DNA from: Steroidobacteraceae bacterium
Lineage (GTDB): Bacteria > Pseudomonadota > Gammaproteobacteria > Steroidobacterales > Steroidobacteraceae
Length of the DNA: 64,000 nt
Assembly (NCBI GenBank): GCA_035720205.1
Contig: DASTOQ010000118.1
Coordinates: 6,546 to 70,545 of the forward strand
Direction: 5' to 3'
Positions 1,690 through 58,514 of the stretch are shown piece after piece. Positions within the stretch are counted from its first letter, which is position 1; each line of letters starts with the position of its first letter. The notes under the pieces are model-generated. The model was given only the letters and a program-made list of their open reading frames with translations. It made no database searches and had not been told where the DNA came from. A program made the translations under genes and the position numbers.

Positions 1690-4080
1690 ATGAGCGACTT
1701 CGAAAAGCTGGGCGCCTTCTACCTGGGCCGGGAGTACGACCCCGCCAGCGACGCGACCGCCGCCGCGCCCCTGATGTACGACTCGAAGGACCTGACGACG
1801 CACGCGGTCTGCGTCGGCATGACCGGCAGCGGCAAGACGGGCCTCTGCATCTCGCTGCTCGAGGAGGCCGCGCTCGACGGCATCCCCGCGCTCGTCATCG
1901 ACCCGAAGGGCGACATTGCGAACCTGATGCTGACCTTCCCGGAACTGACGCCGGCCGAGTTCGAGCCCTGGATCGACGCGGCCGAGGCGGAACGCAAGGG
2001 CACGACGCCCGCCGCACTCGCCGCGAAGATCGCAGAGACCTGGAGGAACGGCCTCGCGGAATGGGGCCAGGACGGCGCGCGCATCCGGAAGTTCCGCGAC
2101 TGCGTGGACCTCGCGGTGTACACGCCCGGCAGCACGGCGGGGCTCCCGCTGTCGGTCCTGCGGTCGTTCGCGCCGCCGGCCCAGGGATCCGATCCGGCCT
2201 CGACGCGCGACCGCATCTCGGCGACCGTCGCGGGGCTGCTCGGGCTGGTCGGCATCGCCGCGGACCCGCTCAAGAGCCGCGAGCACATCCTGCTGTCTTC
2301 GATCGTGGACGCCGCCTGGGCGAAGGGCCATGCGCTCGACCTCGCGGGGCTGATCGGCGCAATCCAGAAGCCGCCGTTCGAGAAGGTCGGCGTGTTCGAC
2401 CTCGAGACCTTTTATCCTTCGAAAGAGCGGCTCGAACTGGCGATGGCGATCAACAACCTGCTCGCCTCGCCGGGTTTCGGCGTCTGGCTCGAGGGCGAGC
2501 CGCTGGACGTCCAGCGCCTGCTGTTCACGGCCGAGGGCAAGTCGCGCATCTCGATCGTCTCCATCGCGCACCTGACCGACGCCGAGCGCATGTTCGTCGT
2601 GACGCTGATCGCGAACGAGCTGGTCGCCTGGATGCGCCAGCAGCCCGGCACTTCCGCGCTGCGCGCGCTCTTCTACATGGACGAGATCTTCGGCTTCTTC
2701 CCGCCCTCGGCGATGCCGCCATCGAAGCTGCCGATGCTGACGCTGATGAAGCAGGCGCGCGCCTTCGGCCTCGGCGTGGTGCTGGCCACCCAGAACCCGG
2801 TGGACCTCGACTACAAGGGCCTGTCGAACGCCGGCACCTGGTTCATCGGGCGGCTGCAGACGGAGCGCGACCAGCAGCGCGTGATCGACGGGCTGTCGAG
2901 CGCGCTGCTGGGCCAGGGCTTCGACCGCGCCACGCTCGAGAAGCTGATGGCGGGCATTGCGCCGCGCGTGTTCCTGATGAGGAACGTGCACGACGACCTG
3001 CCGGTGCTGTTCCGCACGCGCTGGGCCATGAGCTGGCTGCGCGGCCCGCTGACGCTGCCGGAGATCACGCGCCTGATGGCGGCACGCAAGGCGGCGGCAC
3101 CCGCCGCCGCGCCGGCCGGTGCCGAGCAGGCGAAGCCCGCCGTGCGGCCGGTGCTTCCTGCGGGCGTGCAGGAGGTGTTCCTGGCCGCGAAGCCCGGCAG
3201 CGGCGAACTCAGCTATCGGCCGCGCGTAGCGGCGACCGCCGAGCTGCACTACGCGGACAAGCCCGCGGGCGTGGATGCCTGGACGCGCAATGCCTGGCTC
3301 GCGCCCTTCGCCGAAGGCGACGGCGCACCCGCCTGGACGGACGCGACCGTCATCGCGGACCTCGATGCCGTGCTGGCCGACGGTCCGGTGGACGGCGCGG
3401 CGTTCGCCGAGCTGCCGGCGGCGGCGCTGGCCGCGAAGAACTACTCGGACTGGGGCAAGGCGCTGGCCGCGCGCCTCTACCAGGAGGGCGCGGTCGAGCT
3501 CTTGTCCTGCAAGAGCCTCAGGCTCACCTCGAACCCGGGCGAGAGCGAGGGCGACTTCCGCGCGCGGCTCGCGCAGGCGCTGCGCGAGCACCGCGACTTG
3601 GCGGTCGCGAAGCTGCGCGAGAAGCACGCGGCGAAGCTGCAATCGCTGGAGAACCGCATTCGCGCGGCCGAGCAGCGCGTCGAACGCGAGAAGTCCCAGT
3701 ACTCGCAGCGCAAGCTCGACACGGCGGTCTCGATCGGCACCTCGGTGCTGGGCGCCATCTTCGGCGGGCGCAGCACTGCGGCCACGCGCGCGGGCTCGGC
3801 CGCGCGGCACGCCGGCAGGGTCTTCAGCGAGCGCGGCGACATCCAGCGCGCGGGCGAGAGCCTCGAGGCGCTGGCGGCAGAGCGCGACGAGCTCGTCAAG
3901 CGCATCGAGCAGGAGGTCTCGGACCTGGCCGCCTCGCTGGATGCGTCGCAGGTCGCGCTCGAGCGCCTGCGCATCGCGCCGCGCAAGTCCGATATCGCCA
4001 TCGGGCGCATCGCCATCGCCTGGGAGCCCTGGCGTGCGGGCGCCGACGGCTTCCCGCGCCCGGCGTCCATGCTGTCGTGA
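1690..4080 (+). CDS. HerA/FtsK-like P-loop ATPase (DUF87-type ATP-binding protein) with a coiled-coil C-terminal region
   Basis: In-frame ATG at 1690 (MSDFEKLGAFYLGREYD...). Walker A GMTGSGKTG. Sensible composition starts only at this Met. The C-terminal ~150 aa are heptad-like (LREKHAAKLQSLENRIRAAEQRVEREK). Confidence 0.8.
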   Translation: MSDFEKLGAFYLGREYDPASDATAAAPLMYDSKDLTTHAVCVGMTGSGKTGLCISLLEEAALDGIPALVIDPKGDIANLMLTFPELTPAEFEPWIDAAEAERKGTTPAALAAKIAETWRNGLAEWGQDGARIRKFRDCVDLAVYTPGSTAGLPLSVLRSFAPPAQGSDPASTRDRISATVAGLLGLVGIAADPLKSREHILLSSIVDAAWAKGHALDLAGLIGAIQKPPFEKVGVFDLETFYPSKERLELAMAINNLLASPGFGVWLEGEPLDVQRLLFTAEGKSRISIVSIAHLTDAERMFVVTLIANELVAWMRQQPGTSALRALFYMDEIFGFFPPSAMPPSKLPMLTLMKQARAFGLGVVLATQNPVDLDYKGLSNAGTWFIGRLQTERDQQRVIDGLSSALLGQGFDRATLEKLMAGIAPRVFLMRNVHDDLPVLFRTRWAMSWLRGPLTLPEITRLMAARKAAAPAAAPAGAEQAKPAVRPVLPAGVQEVFLAAKPGSGELSYRPRVAATAELHYADKPAGVDAWTRNAWLAPFAEGDGAPAWTDATVIADLDAVLADGPVDGAAFAELPAAALAAKNYSDWGKALAARLYQEGAVELLSCKSLRLTSNPGESEGDFRARLAQALREHRDLAVAKLREKHAAKLQSLENRIRAAEQRVEREKSQYSQRKLDTAVSIGTSVLGAIFGGRSTAATRAGSAARHAGRVFSERGDIQRAGESLEALAAERDELVKRIEQEVSDLAASLDASQVALERLRIAPRKSDIAIGRIAIAWEPWRAGADGFPRPASMLS

Positions 4081-4085
4081 CGTCG

Positions 4086-5336
4086 ATGCATGGTCCGCGG
4101 CGGCTGCCGTTGCTGTGCGTCCTGCTCGGCAGCCTGCTGCTGGCCTGCGACGGCGGCAGCCCTTCGGCCGGCACCCCACCGCTCGGCGCCTACCGCGGCG
4201 TGCTCTCGGTCGCCGGCGGCGACCTGCCGTTCGGGCTCGAGCTCACGCGCGAGAATGGCGCGATCGTCGCCTACCTCGTCAACGGCCCGGAGCGCGCGCG
4301 CGCGCCGGACGTGCGGCTCGAAGGCGACCGCCTCGAGATCCGCATGCCGGGATACCCGCACAAGCTGGAGGCGCGCTTCAAGGATGCGCGCTTCGAGGGC
4401 CAGATCAGCTTCCTGCGGCCGCGCGGCGTGATCCGCACGGTGCGCTTCGTCGGCATGCCGGGCCAGGACTGGCGTTTCTTCCCGAAGCCGGATGCCACGC
4501 CCGCCGATTTCTCCGGCCGCTGGGCACTCAGCTTCCGCGACGACGATGGCACGGAGCGCCCGGCCGTCATGGAACTGACCCAGCAGGGCCACGTCGTGCA
4601 GGGCACGGTGATGCGGCCCTCGGGCGACGACCGCTACCTCGCCGGCGAGGCGCGCGGCGATACGCTGTTCCTGTCCCGCTTCGACGGCGGCAGCGCCTTC
4701 CTCTATCTCGCCAGGCTGGGCGCGGACGGCACGCTGGCCGGCGATTTCCATACGCAGGGCGGCGCGCACGATACCTGGGTCGCCCGCCGCAATCCCGAAG
4801 CAAAGCTGCCCGATGCGGGCACGCTCGCGGGCCTCAAGCCCGGCATCGAGCGCCTGGAATTCAGCTTCCCGGACCTCGACGGCGGCATGCACGCCTTCCC
4901 GTCGGACCGCTACACGGGCAAGGTCGTGCTGATCACGATCGGCGGCAGCTGGTGCCCCAACTGTCACGACGAGGCCGTGTTCCTGCGCGAGCTGCTCGCG
5001 ACGCGGCGCACGCAGGGCCTCGAGGTGATCCAGCTCATGTTCGAGTACACGCCGGACTTCGCGAGCGCGTCCTCCGCGGCGCGTGCCTTCGTGCAGAAAT
5101 TCGACATCGACTACCCGGTGCTGATCGCCGGCACCACGAGCGACGACGACGTGCTGAAGAAGCTGCCGCAGCTCGCGGCGTTTCGCGCCTATCCGACGCT
5201 GATTGCGATCGACCGCCAGGGCACGGTGCGCGCGGTGCATACGGGCTTTTCCGGCCCGGCGACCGGCGAGCACCATGCGCTCCAGAACCGGGAGCTGAGC
5301 GCGCTGGTCGACGGGTTGCTGAGCGAACGCTCCTGA
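4086..5336 (+). CDS. TlpA/redoxin-like thiol-disulfide oxidoreductase lipoprotein with an N-terminal extra domain
   Basis: ATG at 4086, 5 nt after the preceding stop. Lipobox LLLAC. Thioredoxin-fold motif GGSWCPNCHDE in the C-terminal half. Confidence 0.8.
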   Translation: MHGPRRLPLLCVLLGSLLLACDGGSPSAGTPPLGAYRGVLSVAGGDLPFGLELTRENGAIVAYLVNGPERARAPDVRLEGDRLEIRMPGYPHKLEARFKDARFEGQISFLRPRGVIRTVRFVGMPGQDWRFFPKPDATPADFSGRWALSFRDDDGTERPAVMELTQQGHVVQGTVMRPSGDDRYLAGEARGDTLFLSRFDGGSAFLYLARLGADGTLAGDFHTQGGAHDTWVARRNPEAKLPDAGTLAGLKPGIERLEFSFPDLDGGMHAFPSDRYTGKVVLITIGGSWCPNCHDEAVFLRELLATRRTQGLEVIQLMFEYTPDFASASSAARAFVQKFDIDYPVLIAGTTSDDDVLKKLPQLAAFRAYPTLIAIDRQGTVRAVHTGFSGPATGEHHALQNRELSALVDGLLSERS

Positions 5337-53531: not shown

Positions 53532-53891
53532 TCAGCGTCCCGCGACGTTGAAGTGCAGCCGGGTGTCCTGGTAGCGGTCGTCGACCCTGGCGCTGCCGGT
53601 CGCGACCAGCACGTAGAGGATATTGAGCGCCTGCAGCGCGTCGCGCACCCCCGCCCCGCGCGAGCGCGCGGCCAGCGCCTTGGCCGTGACGTCCTGCTTG
53701 CCGGCGTAGCGCTTGCGGATGCGATCGACGGCGGCGCGGCTCACGAGGTTGAAGTAACCGCTGGCGCGCTTGGTGCGCGAGGCCGACATCACCACGTAGA
53801 CGTCGCCGCTCTCGAAGACGTAGTAGGTCTGGCGCTTGCCGCTGGCCTGACCGCGGTACGTGAGCCCCTTGGCGAGGCTTCTGATGTTCAT
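53532..53891 (-). CDS. Basic hypothetical protein, last gene on the strand of the DUF692 cluster
   Basis: Start at MNIRSLAKG (53891) after GGGAGAA. 119 aa. No family recognised. Confidence 0.5.
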   Translation of the reverse strand: MNIRSLAKGLTYRGQASGKRQTYYVFESGDVYVVMSASRTKRASGYFNLVSRAAVDRIRKRYAGKQDVTAKALAARSRGAGVRDALQALNILYVLVATGSARVDDRYQDTRLHFNVAGR

Positions 53892-53928: not shown

Positions 53929-54786
53929 TTACTCCCGCGCGACACCCACGAACAGGCCGGCCGCGGCCCACTCGCGGAACCAGCGGCCCAGCATGGCGGC
54001 CAGCCGGTCCGCGCTCAGCCGGCGCCCGCGGACGGCGGCGCGCACGGCCTGTGCCAGCGTAGCGCCGGACTCGAGCGCGGCCAGCAGCCGGAACTGTGCG
54101 GGCGACTGGTCGCGCCGATACACCTGGAATGCGCGGCGGTAGACCATCGCGAACGTCCTGCGCGGCGACGGAAGTCGCGGCTTCCTCCCGCCGCGAATCG
54201 CATTCATGCAGTCGTTGGCCGGGTATCGCAACACCAGCAGGCGAAGGGCCGGGTTCATGACCAGGCGCAGGTGCCGCCACTCGTCCGCGCCGATCGCGGC
54301 GATCTCCGCCGCCGCCAACGGCTCGACCAGCGGCGCGTCGAACACGTCTTCCATGGCACGCTCGATCCGCGCCACATCCGCCGCCAACCCGCTCGCGCGC
54401 CCGCGGGGCAAGTGGTGCGCGAGGAAGTCCGGGAAGCGCGCACTCAGCCGGTTGAGGGTGCGGCAGCGCGACGGGTTCTTCGCCAGGAATTCCCGGGCGA
54501 CCCGGGCGAACGCTTCTGGTTGCAGGATGCGTCGCGTCACCGGATATTCGGCGTCCATGATCTCGAGCAGCCGCGCGTAATACATGTGCGCGTAGATGTC
54601 GAGGCGCTCGACGGACGTGAGCGACCGGGACGGCAGTACGATGGATTCGGGCGCCTTCGCCGCAACGGGCAGCAGCCGGCGCGCCCGGGGCGCACGGATG
54701 CCGCTGGCGGCGCCGTCCGGATGCATGACCACGGTCTGCATCCAGCGTTCGAGCAGGTCGAGCGACGGCGCGCTGGCGTGCGTCAT
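53929..54786 (-). CDS. DUF2063-domain protein (BufC/MbnC-like partner of the MNIO enzyme)
   Basis: The ATG at 54786 overlaps the DUF692 TGA (ATGA). 285 aa. N-terminal region LLERWMQTVVMHPDG...RLDIYAHMYYARLLE resembles DUF2063. Confidence 0.75.
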   Translation of the reverse strand: MTHASAPSLDLLERWMQTVVMHPDGAASGIRAPRARRLLPVAAKAPESIVLPSRSLTSVERLDIYAHMYYARLLEIMDAEYPVTRRILQPEAFARVAREFLAKNPSRCRTLNRLSARFPDFLAHHLPRGRASGLAADVARIERAMEDVFDAPLVEPLAAAEIAAIGADEWRHLRLVMNPALRLLVLRYPANDCMNAIRGGRKPRLPSPRRTFAMVYRRAFQVYRRDQSPAQFRLLAALESGATLAQAVRAAVRGRRLSADRLAAMLGRWFREWAAAGLFVGVARE

Positions 54787-55679
54787 GCGGCTGCGGTCTG
54801 CGGTGGCGCGCCGGCACGGAACCGGGCGGCCTTGCGAACTTCCTGCTGGAGCACCGGGAATGCGGGAATCCTGGCGTCCCACTCGAGCAGCGTGGCGCGT
54901 CCGCCCGTGCGCTCGTGCACGCGGCGATAGAGTTCCCAGACCTCGTCGATCACGCGGCCGTCGTGCGTATCGATGCAATGCGTGCCGTTGTCCGTGTGCC
55001 CGGCGAGGTGCACCTGCACCACGCGTTCGCAGGGGATCGCATCGAGATACGCCACCGGGTCGAGGTCGTGATTGCGGCAGGTCACGTAGACATTGTTGAC
55101 GTCGAGCAGCAGCGCGCAATCCGCCTCCACGGCGAGCCGCGCGATGAATTCCTCCTCGGGCATCGAGGAGGAAGCAAAGGTCAGGTAGGTGGAAGGATTC
55201 TCGAGCACCAGCGGTCGCTGCAGGTGGTCCTGGATGATGCGCACGCGCCGCACCATGTGCCGCAGACTTTCCTCGGTGTACGGCACCGGGTAGAGATCGT
55301 GGCCGTTGACGCCCGCGACCCCGGTCCAGCAGATGTGGTCGCCGAGCCAGTGCGCTTTCACGCGCTTCGCGAGCGCCGCCAGCTTGTCGAGAAAGGCGAA
55401 ATCGACAGGGTCCGTGCTGCCGACCGACAGGCAGACGCCGTGCATGGCGATCGGGTACCGTTCAGCGATCTGGTCCAGGTACCAGAGCGGGCGTCCACCC
55501 GTATCGAGAAAGTTTTCGGACAGGATCTCGAACCAGTCCATCGCCGGCCAGTGCTCGGTGATGTAACGGAAATGCGGGGTGCGCAGGCCAACGCCCAGCC
55601 CGAGGTCGGGCAGGCGCCAGCAGTTCGGCAGCGGCCGGGCGGCCATGTCGTGATCCCCTGCCATGGTCCCCGCCGTCAT
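54783..55679 (-). CDS. DUF692/UPF0276 family multinuclear non-heme iron oxidase (MNIO; MbnB/BufB-like)
   Basis: 298 aa. GLGVGLRTPHF, DWFEILSENF, YPIAMHGVCLSVGSTDP, HWLGDHICWTGV.G.NGHDLYPVPYTEE and LVLENPSTY are the hallmark DUF692 blocks. Confidence 0.9.
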   Translation of the reverse strand: MTAGTMAGDHDMAARPLPNCWRLPDLGLGVGLRTPHFRYITEHWPAMDWFEILSENFLDTGGRPLWYLDQIAERYPIAMHGVCLSVGSTDPVDFAFLDKLAALAKRVKAHWLGDHICWTGVAGVNGHDLYPVPYTEESLRHMVRRVRIIQDHLQRPLVLENPSTYLTFASSSMPEEEFIARLAVEADCALLLDVNNVYVTCRNHDLDPVAYLDAIPCERVVQVHLAGHTDNGTHCIDTHDGRVIDEVWELYRRVHERTGGRATLLEWDARIPAFPVLQQEVRKAARFRAGAPPQTAAA

Positions 55680-55723
55680 GCGCGCCGATCTGCGTGCATG
55701 ACGGCAGGGTCACGGGCTCGCGA

Positions 55724-56095
55724 TCAGCCCATGTGCGCCGGATCGACCGGCACCTTGCAGCCGCCCTTGCCCTTGCAGCTGTTCTTGCCGGCGCAGCCGC
55801 CGTCGCCGCCCTTGCAGCCGCCTTGGCCTTTGCAGCCATTCTTGCCCGCACACTCGTGCCTGGCCGCGGTAGCGCAGCCGCCCTTGCCCTTGCAGCTGTT
55901 CTTGCCGGCGCAACCGCCGTCGCCGCTCTGGCAACCGCCCTTGCCCTTGCACTCGTTGTGGCCCTTACAGATGTGCTTGTCGCCGCCGCCCTCCGCCGGA
56001 TTGGCGGATGCGACCCTGGCAAGCTCGGCGCCGGCGAGCAGACCGCCCGTCACGCCCAGCATCACCTTGCCGAAGTCCCGACGATTCATGGACAT
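55724..56095 (-). CDS. Exported 12-Cys repeat peptide: RiPP precursor (bufferin BufA2-like, 6/12-Cys class)
   Basis: Start at MSMNRRDFGKVMLGVTGGLLAGAELARVASA (56095) after GGGGGAA. The mature part is Gly/Lys/Cys-rich with two 6-Cys modules. It lies 44 nt upstream of the DUF692 gene. Confidence 0.85.
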   Translation of the reverse strand: MSMNRRDFGKVMLGVTGGLLAGAELARVASANPAEGGGDKHICKGHNECKGKGGCQSGDGGCAGKNSCKGKGGCATAARHECAGKNGCKGQGGCKGGDGGCAGKNSCKGKGGCKVPVDPAHMG

Positions 56096-56285
56096 TGTGG
56101 GTTCCCCCAAATCATTGAGTTGACGCTGAAATGACCCGAAGGGTCGGTGATTAGACCGGCCGTAGCGAGCAAATACTACGCCCGGATTGCCGGCGCAGGT
56201 CCGCGGCGTCGGCTTCTTGCGACGCAACACGCCGGCGACATTCCCAACATGGCCCGGGCGGCGCTCGGTACCATCGCGGCCACGG

Positions 56286-58514
56286 ATGAAGGTCCAGCGC
56301 CGCTTTGCTGTGATGTGGAGATCCCTGGGCCAGGCGCTGCAGCGCATCCTGCTCTCCGCGATTCCCCTGCTGTTCTTCGTGCTGCACGCCGCCGGCGTCC
56401 TGCCGCTCGAGTTCGTGCAGCGCATCGAGAATTACCTCTACGACGTGCGCGTCGGCTGGATGATGCCGAACGTCGTCGATCCGCGCGTCGTGATCGTGGA
56501 CATCGACGAGGCCAGCCTCGCGGCCGAGGGGCAGTGGCCCTGGCCGCGGCGCAAGATCGCGGCGCTCAACGACGCGCTGTTCGACGATTACGGCATCCGC
56601 GCGCTCGGGTTCGACGTGCTGTTCGGCGAGCCCGAGCGCAGCGCGGAACTGCAGCTGATCGAGGCCATCGCCAGCGGCCCGCTCGCGGGCGACACCGGGC
56701 GCCTGGTGCGACTGGAGGAGATCCGCCGCGAGCACGAGGGCGACCGCCTGCTCGCGGAATCCCTGATCGCGCGCGACATCGTGCTCGGCTACGTATTCAA
56801 GCAACGGCCCGGCCCGTCCGAGCCCGCGACCACCGGCCTGCTGCCGCCGCCGGTCACCTTCGCGGACAGCCGCATCCACGGCCACGGCTGGCTGCGGCCG
56901 CTGGGCTACGCCGCCAACCTCCAGGCACTGCAGCAGTCCGCCCCGGCCGGCGGCTTCTTCGACACGCCGCTCACCGACGAGGACGGCGTGGTGCGCAGGG
57001 TGCCGCTCTACCAGTACTACGACGGCAACCTCTACGAATCGCTCTCCCTCGGCCTCGCGCGACTCGCGCAGGGCACGCCGGCAGTGCAGTTCGCCTTCGA
57101 CGCGGGTCGCCCCGAGCGCCTCGCCTACCTCAGCCTCGGCGAGACCCGCATCCCGGTCGACGACCAGGGCGCGGTGCTGATTCCCTTTCGCGGCCCGCTC
57201 GGCAGCTTCCGCTACATCTCGGCCACCGACGTCCTGAACCAGCGGGCGCCGGCGGAGGCGCTGCAGGATGCCATCGTGCTGGTCGGCGCGAGCGCGCCGG
57301 GGCTGCAGGACGTGCGCGCGGTGCCGGTCGCCAAGGAGTACATCGGCGTGGAGGCGCACGCCAACCTGGTCTCGGGCTTCCTCGACGGCACGATCCCGTT
57401 CCGGCCGCGCCAGTCCGCGCTCGCCGAGATCCTGGCGCTGCTCGTGGTCGCGCTGCTCACGGCGCTCATCCTCCCGCGCCTGGCGCCGCTGGCCGGCTTC
57501 GGCCTGTTCCTGCTGCTGGTCGCCGCCGCGCTCGGCCTCAACCTCATGCTCTGGTCGCGCTACGGCCTGGTGCTCCCGCTCGCGGCCGTGCTGGTCTACA
57601 CGACCATCGCGGCGCTGCTGCAGCTCACCTGGGGATACTTCACCGCCACCCGCCGCCGCCAGCGCCTGTCGCGCATCTTCGGCCAGTACGTGCCGTCCGA
57701 GATCGTCAGCGAGCTCGACGCCGGCGGCGCGGAAGTCTCGCTCGAGGGCGAGAGCCGGGAGATGTCGGTGCTGTTCTCCGACGTGCGCGGCTTCACGACC
57801 ATCTCCGAGGGCCTGCAGGCGCGCGAGCTCACGCAGCTCATGAACGAGTTCCTGACGCCGATCACCGCCGCCATCCACCGCCACCGCGGCACCATCGACA
57901 AGTACATGGGCGACGCGGTGATGGCCTTCTGGGGCGCGCCGCTGCCGGATGCGGAGCACGCGGCGCACGCGGTCCAGGCGGCCCAGGCGATGGTCGCCGA
58001 GATGCGCGCGCTCAGGCCCGCCTTCGAGGCGCGCGGCTGGCCCGCGATCGAGATCGGGGTCGGCATCTCGAGCGGCGAGATGAACGTCGGCAACATGGGC
58101 TCGCAGTTCCGCGCCGCCTACACCGTGCTCGGCGACGCCGTGAACCTCGGCTCGCGCCTCGAGGGCCTCACCAAGACCTACGGCGTCAACATCATCGTCA
58201 GCGAACGGACCGTGGCGCTGGCGCCGGGCCTGAAATACCGCGAACTCGACCGCGTGCGGGTCAAGGGCAAGCAGGAACCGGTCGGCATCTACGAGCCGAT
58301 CGCGCCGGCGGACGAGCCCGCGGCGCAGCGTTTCGCGGACGCGCTCGCCTGCTACCGGGACCAGGACTGGGACGGCGCAGAGACGCTCGTCACGGAACTG
58401 GAAGCCGCCGCGCCGCATCCGCTCCACCGGCTCTATCTCGGGCGCATCCGGCATTTCCGGTCGCAGCCGCCGCCGCCCGATTGGGATGGTGTTTTCACCT
58501 TCCACGCTAAATAA
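56286..58514 (+). CDS. CHASE2-domain membrane sensor fused to a class III adenylate cyclase
   Basis: CHASE2 (VVIVDIDEASL...GQWPWPR), three TMs, then the cyclase domain (MSVLFSDVRGFTTISE, GTIDKYMGDAVMAFWGAP, YTVLGDAVNLGSRLEG). The start could be 56286 or 56313. Confidence 0.85.
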   Translation: MKVQRRFAVMWRSLGQALQRILLSAIPLLFFVLHAAGVLPLEFVQRIENYLYDVRVGWMMPNVVDPRVVIVDIDEASLAAEGQWPWPRRKIAALNDALFDDYGIRALGFDVLFGEPERSAELQLIEAIASGPLAGDTGRLVRLEEIRREHEGDRLLAESLIARDIVLGYVFKQRPGPSEPATTGLLPPPVTFADSRIHGHGWLRPLGYAANLQALQQSAPAGGFFDTPLTDEDGVVRRVPLYQYYDGNLYESLSLGLARLAQGTPAVQFAFDAGRPERLAYLSLGETRIPVDDQGAVLIPFRGPLGSFRYISATDVLNQRAPAEALQDAIVLVGASAPGLQDVRAVPVAKEYIGVEAHANLVSGFLDGTIPFRPRQSALAEILALLVVALLTALILPRLAPLAGFGLFLLLVAAALGLNLMLWSRYGLVLPLAAVLVYTTIAALLQLTWGYFTATRRRQRLSRIFGQYVPSEIVSELDAGGAEVSLEGESREMSVLFSDVRGFTTISEGLQARELTQLMNEFLTPITAAIHRHRGTIDKYMGDAVMAFWGAPLPDAEHAAHAVQAAQAMVAEMRALRPAFEARGWPAIEIGVGISSGEMNVGNMGSQFRAAYTVLGDAVNLGSRLEGLTKTYGVNIIVSERTVALAPGLKYRELDRVRVKGKQEPVGIYEPIAPADEPAAQRFADALACYRDQDWDGAETLVTELEAAAPHPLHRLYLGRIRHFRSQPPPPDWDGVFTFHAK

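Follow-up and report, generated by a model that had tools for sequence, protein, structure and literature searches.

On the minus strand of the 64,000-nt stretch of DNA analysed here (hereafter the window), whose host is a Steroidobacteraceae-like gammaproteobacterium, lies a three-gene operon of the bufferin-2 type, bufA-bufB-bufC. Its first gene, bufA (55724-56095 (-), stop codon included), encodes a 123-aa precursor, MSMNRRDFGKVMLGVTGGLLAGAELARVASANPAEGGGDKHICKGHNECKGKGGCQSGDGGCAGKNSCKGKGGCATAARHECAGKNGCKGQGGCKGGDGGCAGKNSCKGKGGCKVPVDPAHMG, of a peptide made by the ribosome and modified after translation (RiPP), which we assign to the bufferin-2-type ('Cys-Lys captophorin') precursors in their 12-Cys duplicated form. 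A Shine-Dalgarno-like GGGGGA, read from the sequence at 56103-56108 (-), stands 7 nt upstream of the start codon (ATG, 56095), and the start M-[SAT]-M-N-R-R is also seen in bufA relatives. [quoted passage not shown] Its stop codon overlaps the start of bufC (53929-54786 (-)) in the sequence ATGA. The 285-aa BufC is a DUF2063 partner protein of the PME1 type (PF09836, 64.6 bits for a cut-off of 27.2); its C-terminal NGO1945_C domain reaches 24 bits, just under the cut-off of 27, and its score on the HvfC model NF050145 (56.6) is below the cut-off of 142. BufC thereby has the DUF2063 and RiPP recognition element (RRE)-like C-terminal domains by which Buf2 operons are recognized.

Since BufB is above the curated cut-off, the DUF2063 partner is encoded next to it and the same gene order recurs in relatives, we regard the identity of the gene as bufA, together with its internal duplication, as near certain. 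The precursor itself scores 41 bits on the BufA2 model NF050166 (E 1.6e-10), below the cut-off of 60, and ten relatives with either of the two signal types described below (RR-type and Lys-type) reach 30-55 bits. As both types fall short, the Gly/Lys-rich peptides as a whole form a sister set to the curated equivalog, significantly similar to it but under its threshold. The arginine pair of the signal was considered as the cause of the low score and rejected, as Lys-type members are sub-threshold too. A collection of 5.8 billion proteins held more than 6999 bufA homologues, and a profile search gave 1342 representatives at 50% identity. In nearly all of 80 loci from named genomes bufB and bufC adjoin the precursor gene; the nearest loci (77-86% identity) belong to Steroidobacteraceae metagenome-assembled genomes, and the BufB of the window nests in that clade.

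The closest characterised system is Bufferin 2 of Caulobacter vibrioides (BufA2-BufB2-BufC2; Buf2, the BUF_6/12Cys family; PMC11626156, PMC12452194), in which a Cys-rich exported precursor is likewise followed by an MNIO and a DUF2063 partner. The two share six Cys per module, the 12-Cys duplicate that is already published and a BufB above the curated bufferin cut-off. They differ in three respects: the NF050166 score of the window precursor lies below the cut-off, its signal carries a conserved twin-arginine-type motif where the Buf2 papers describe Sec signals, and its operon has an extra conserved 119-aa gene after bufC. The peptide also resembles the 'Cys-Lys' captophorins (Gadgil et al. 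2026, PMC13097082) by its several Cys-Lys dyads (CKG) and its MNIO-PME1 pair: its HNECK and NSCKG fit the 'Cys-Lys' motifs of that work and are close to the common captophorin 5-mers HNDCK and NACKG. The fontiphorin characterised there belongs to another group (Lys-Cys, EGKCG), unlike the window peptide.

The precursor begins with the signal peptide MSMNRRDFGKVMLGVTGGLLAGAELARVASA and continues with NPAEGGGDKHI, a first Cys module (residues 43-74, 55874-55969 (-)) spaced C-x5-C-x5-C-x6-C-x5-C-x5-C, the linker ATAARHE (residues 75-81, 55853-55873 (-); family form A-[TS]-x-A-K-H-x, 6-8 residues), a second module of the same spacing (residues 82-113, 55757-55852 (-)) and KVPVDPAHMG. The mature peptide inferred from this layout has 92 residues, among them 28 Gly, 14 Lys and all 12 Cys, and GDGGCAGKNSCKGKGGC is present twice. 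Thus, the two equally spaced modules with a repeated core and a 7-residue linker, as described in an earlier prediction made from the letters of the window (the original prediction), are recovered in the translation. The tandem repeat that it had put at about 105 nt also exists, with a different size: it consists of two direct 106-nt copies (55757-55862 and 55874-55979) that are 83% identical and have a period of 117 nt. The two modules share 82 of 96 nt, and their codons differ by 4 synonymous and 6 non-synonymous changes. Tandem Repeats Finder also reports a 57-nt period (19 aa, three Cys; 3.4 copies) and an 18-nt period, which suggests that each module was itself assembled from smaller C-x5 repeats.

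A twin-arginine-type signal peptide conserved among bufA relatives

The signal peptide covers residues 1-31 (56003-56095 (-)) and would be cleaved after A-S-A, a site deduced from the n/h/c layout and the AxA motif. AlphaFold2, run on the precursor with 48 aligned sequences, predicts a helix over residues 5-30, the sole confident part of the model (mean predicted local distance difference test score, pLDDT, 50.9; whole core below 50); the model describes the unmodified peptide, to which thiooxazoles and metal are invisible. The original prediction had pointed to a leader with NRRDFGK, a hydrophobic stretch and VASA-N, and this is what we found: the motif N4-R5-R6-D7-F8-G9-K10 (56066-56086 (-)) precedes a 13-residue uncharged stretch and ELARVASA-N. 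With respect to the consensus S/T-R-R-x-F-L-K of twin-arginine translocation (Tat) signals, NRRDFGK agrees at the N-cap, both Arg, the Phe and the Lys, and has Gly at the Leu position. The pair R5-R6 lies where the n-region meets the h-region, as in Tat signals; the h-region has a mean Kyte-Doolittle value of 1.77 and 31% Gly, and R27 in ELARVASA supplies a basic residue in the c-region, of the kind associated with Sec avoidance. The signal therefore shares with Tat signals the N-cap, the twin Arg, a Phe two residues on, a Lys four residues on, a Gly/Ala-rich h-region, a basic c-region and AxA. It departs from them at the Leu position, which is Gly in the window and N, G, T or S in most relatives, and in its length, 31 residues as compared to a Tat mean of 37 (PMC1182353).

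We then asked how the signal type is distributed in the family, using 150 representatives at 50% identity. RR-x-F-x-K was found in 42 of them and RR-x-F in 28 more, while 68 lacked RR and carried Lys-type or lipoprotein signals; in the clade of the window RR-x-F is invariant. Hence, where the conservation of the RR pair in homologues was checked, non-conservation was not found, RR-x-F being present in about 65-70 of the 150 representatives. A basic pair followed after one residue by a hydrophobic one occurred in 77 of the 150: 69 of these pairs were RR (65 with Phe) and 8 were RK, KK or KR, none of them with Phe. Among 72 RR-type N-termini, in which RR is invariant, 66 have the Phe, 49 have N, D, S or T before the pair, and 49 have K or R at +4 from the second Arg; in 56, N, G, T, S or A takes the place of the consensus Leu. 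The last basic position of the motif is mostly Lys (132 K and 19 R of 186 relatives; 38 K and 11 R of 72 N-termini). Mapped on a tree of BufB from 69 loci, the signal type takes only 4 changes, as compared to 22 with shuffled labels, and the RR type persists across Pseudomonadota, Planctomycetota and Acidobacteriota.

The h-regions of the two types differ in composition, with 20% Gly in RR-type and 12% in Lys-type signals (p = 1e-10) and shorter uncharged runs in the RR type. In Tat signals, a basic residue that directly follows a short h-region is a Sec-avoidance feature. Such a short run closed by K or R was found in 20 of 50 non-lipoprotein RR-type signals and in 1 of 31 Lys-type ones. The first charged residue after the run was basic or acidic in 26 and 23 RR-type and in 14 and 16 Lys-type signals, respectively, which is not a significant difference, so that the two types differ only in the combined feature; a comparison of the c-regions anchored on G-x3-G was discarded for the unreliability of the anchor. 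Common to both types is the hydrophobic core AAVAG-x3-G (within residues 11-31, 56003-56065 (-)), which RR-type and Lys-type relatives keep to at least 90%; in a 48-sequence alignment of both types G18 and G22 each reach a conservation of 90% or higher, and every member of the RR-type set has G16. Signal peptides are not usually so conserved, a hint that this segment may have a second, sequence-specific role.

The curated Tat-signal models separate the two types as well. Searching 42-aa N-termini at E <= 10, we found matches to TIGR01409 in 20 of 72 RR-type and 0 of 48 Lys-type sequences (Fisher p = 2e-5), and to TIGR02811 in 29 of 72 and 1 of 48, respectively (Fisher p = 7e-7). When the 72 RR-type N-termini were compared with Pfam, the Rieske Tat-signal model PF10399 was among the two most-matched models (12 of 72), and PF10518 was matched by 3 of 72. 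Relatives that carry RRxFL come near or exceed the TIGR01409 cut-off of 16.7, with 14.6 and 17.3 bits.

A cryo-EM structure of TatBC with MdoD published in 2026 shows that the N-cap, both Arg and the Phe contact TatC, and that the Leu and Lys positions face lipid (PMC13323110). The bufA relatives conserve exactly the positions that contact TatC in that structure and vary at the Leu position, so that the TatBC-MdoD contact pattern would explain which residues of the family motif are kept (N-cap, R, R, F) and which is variable. The motif of MdoD in that structure, M-D-R-R-R-F-I-K (PMC13323110), can be set beside M-D-R-R-E-F-T-K of relatives and M-N-R-R-D-F-G-K of the window. Together, these data indicate that the twin-arginine-type signal, whose function is putative, is a family-wide variant unreported in the bufferin papers searched. 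The system and the duplication are known.

Proposed export through Tat and its alternatives

The bufferin papers describe Sec signals, plus 16% lipoprotein signals (PMC11626156, PMC12452194), in agreement with the statement in the original prediction that bufferin-type precursors are described as Sec substrates. The words 'Tat' and 'twin-arginine' are absent from four bufferin or MNIO papers (PMC11626156, PMC12452194, PMC13097082, PMC8692599); PMC13097082 has no discussion of export signals, the terms 'signal peptide', 'Tat' and 'periplasm' being absent from it, and PMC12452194 gives no table of TAT or SignalP classes in its supplement. In the literature on DUF692, bufferins, MNIOs or RiPPs we found no natural Tat export of such peptides, and a literature search returned no natural RiPP class with a Tat signal. 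Lanthipeptides and the Tat pathway do meet in one work, which, in the portion of it consulted, concerns engineering for phage display, not a natural precursor (PMC5686179).

From the conservation of the motif and its match to TatC contacts, we propose that the signal is most probably recognized by the Tat translocase, perhaps with Sec competing for it, a reading to which we give a probability of about 55%. Several observations weigh against it. RRDFG of the window fails the default TatP pattern RR.[FGAVML][LITMVF], which covers 97% of the positives in the training set of that tool (PMC1182353), because G9 occupies the consensus Leu position, and only 48 of 186 RR-type relatives pass it. Nor did the N-terminus of the window precursor, presented in three formats, match TIGR01409, TIGR02811, PF10518 or PF10399 at E <= 10, while a CueO control scored 22 and 25.9 bits, above both cut-offs (TIGR01409 and PF10518). 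The copy in the window is thus a weak match to strict Tat criteria, and the Tat-like motif announced by the original prediction stands as a conserved twin-arginine type of the family but not as a match of the window itself to the TatP pattern or the curated Tat models. The h-regions have similar Kyte-Doolittle values (1.75 for RR-type and 1.54 for Lys-type, p = 0.54). Closely related operons carry Lys-type or lipoprotein signals, which implies that Tat is no intrinsic requirement of the cargo. AlphaFold2 predicts a disordered core for the unmodified peptide, and a small, apparently unfolded peptide is unlike the folded, cofactor-bearing proteins that are Tat cargo. Finally, the sole export experiment, a fusion of the BufA1 signal peptide to beta-lactamase, was read by its authors as Sec export (PMC11626156); this fusion does not discriminate Sec from Tat. 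As an in-genome yardstick, we scanned the 64-kb window for other Tat-like N-termini and found none.

The same conservation could have another cause, namely that the precursor leaves by Sec and that N-R-R-x-F-x-K and AAVAG-x3-G form a leader, overlapping the signal peptide, that is recognized by BufB-BufC through the RRE-like domain of BufC. This would account for the hydrophobic region being so oddly conserved for a signal peptide, and for the polar residue at the consensus Leu position, which is atypical of Tat signals; a leader overlapping the signal was left open by PMC11626156. Moreover, 7 of the 48 Lys-type N-termini match NF050125, a model of chryseobasin-related MNIO precursors, which suggests an N-terminus that is shared and functionally read. 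On the other hand, modification of BufA1 does not require its signal peptide (PMC11626156) and FonA needs no single pre-core position for RRE engagement (PMC13097082). Lys-type relatives without RR-x-F keep the hydrophobic region beside adjoining BufB and BufC genes, so that BufBC does not need RR-x-F. The conserved positions also coincide with TatC contacts, and RRxFL members score on curated Tat models. We hold a leader role under Sec export to be a serious but less probable alternative. More doubtful still is a promiscuous signal by which a small, hydrophilic and probably unfolded cargo would leave through Sec or Tat, with the Arg pair only biasing or delaying export and no obligate use of Tat. 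It would fit the equal hydrophobicity of the two types of h-region, the predicted disorder of the core and a signal type that changed at least 2-4 times along the BufB tree with no other visible change in the operon, and a hydrophobicity-dependent overlap between Sec and Tat signal recognition is described in the portion consulted of PMC5539426. Yet Lys is strictly excluded from the Arg pair and Phe is conserved along with it, which implies selection for a specific recognition beyond positive charge, and in 40% of the non-lipoprotein signals of the RR type a short h-region is directly followed by a basic residue.

That the pair has no function and is a chance or compositional product of a high-GC genome is hardly credible. 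A GC-rich genome does favour Arg over Lys, and the motif of the window does fail the strict Tat predictors; however, RR-x-F is kept across three phyla and long BufB branches, in representatives at 50% identity that exclude near-identical copies, and this conservation contradicts the idea. In addition, RR makes up 69 of the 77 basic pairs, and Phe follows none of the 8 pairs that contain Lys. Nor can base composition account for the Arg pair, because the proteins are otherwise rich in Lys (14 Lys in the 92 mature residues), and the last basic position of the motif itself is mostly Lys. At the other extreme, a large bufferin-2-type clade including bufA might be obligate Tat cargo, with a signal held by BufC until the thiooxazoles are complete and a peptide that is then exported, perhaps loaded with Cu(I); we consider this improbable. 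In that case export itself would remove cytoplasmic copper stoichiometrically, the clade would be the first natural RiPP class exported via Tat, and BufC holding the bufA signal would parallel the Tat proofreading chaperones that hold the signals of their substrates. As for the claim in the original prediction that Tat export would imply modification and perhaps metal loading or folding in the cytoplasm, we found no support for folding or metal loading before export, the core having a pLDDT below 50.

Taking export through Tat as the favoured reading, the pathway could be as follows. The precursor would be synthesized with its 31-residue signal peptide, and cytoplasmic BufB-BufC would, by analogy with characterised bufferins, turn Cys residues into 5-thiooxazoles that bind copper. 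Buf2 of C. vibrioides has its four central Cys modified and a disulfide between the first and the last (PMC11626156), and by analogy the 12-Cys peptide of the window may carry up to eight heterocycles and two disulfides. The modified peptide would then be exported, probably by Tat, and cleaved after ASA, and the Gly/Lys-rich mature peptide may buffer excess copper in the periplasm, as analogy with bufferins suggests. Engagement of Tat would fit a cargo that is kept in the cytoplasm until modified.

The place and time at which a bufferin is modified, folded and loaded with metal depend on its export route, and bufferins are treated in the literature as the model of RiPPs exported by Sec. Should about half of the Buf2-like precursors of environmental bacteria use a twin-arginine signal, this generalisation needs correcting and Tat gains a new kind of cargo, small Gly/Lys-rich peptides bearing heterocycles. 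Heterologous production would then have to take the export route into account, and the question of how a signal-bearing RiPP escapes export before modification would get a testable answer.

Module number and the surroundings of bufA

We also examined the number of Cys modules among 268 collected relatives. The exact double module is present in 116 (with a linker of 7, 8 or 6 residues) and the exact single module in 120, so that the module spacing is kept in 236. In 24 close relatives that share the signal peptide of the window, the precursor has 6, 7, 9, 10 or 12 Cys. At one locus (L001, 83% identity), a 12-Cys and a 6-Cys precursor gene with identical signal peptides stand in tandem; such pairs, whose signal peptides are the same or almost so, lie upstream of a single bufB-bufC at L001 (8001-8738) and L063 (~4001-4710). 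The varied Cys counts behind one signal peptide and the tandem genes of L001 suggest that module number changes readily in evolution. An alternation of 6-Cys and 12-Cys forms, as asked by the original prediction, is therefore seen even inside one locus. To date the duplication, modules were compared both inside one protein and from protein to protein, but all identities fell at 74-79%, too constrained to decide. The 12-Cys form with a duplicated domain is already published as 'BUF_6/12Cys', with 90% of Buf2 precursors having 6 Cys and 10% having 12 (PMC12452194): the origin of this RiPP precursor by internal duplication is real, and it adds one more 12-Cys example with no further novelty. Among the intermediate forms, 10-Cys variants (P0008, P0020, P0027; loci L005, L007) have one half-module replaced by GGGENAGKNS with the loss of two Cys, and 9-Cys variants (P0011, P0012, P0015) look like recombination products between repeated CAGKNSCKGKGGC segments.

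Downstream of bufC, a 119-aa gene (MNIRSLAKGL..., 53532-53891 (-)) has no match in Pfam or NCBIfam. In the Steroidobacteraceae-like clade, 9 loci (L001-L006, L013, L031, L063; L001 and L004 belong to one contig) keep it behind bufC, and it was absent from all other bufferin loci examined. The buf operon of the window showed neither a sigma nor an anti-sigma gene; DoxX was not specifically looked for there. In some Acidobacteriota loci (L029 ~1450, L034 ~2091, L047 ~3501), a second and unrelated small exported Cys open reading frame (ORF) lies upstream of the Buf2-like precursor gene, with 7 Cys and the signal MN..LLVAALAGML..

On the other side of the operon, a CHASE2-adenylate/guanylate cyclase gene (56187-58514 (+); PF05226, PF00211) is divergent from bufA, from which it is separated by about 190 nt or less depending on its start codon (TTG at 56187 in the ORF list). 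The long overlapping ORFs that cover bufA on both strands over 55462-56134 (for instance 54915-56123 (+), 402 aa) were rejected as genes, being read-throughs of the GC-rich repeat. Two database 'homologues', P0189 (432 aa) and L070 (311 aa), look like frame-shifted readings of a similar repeat.

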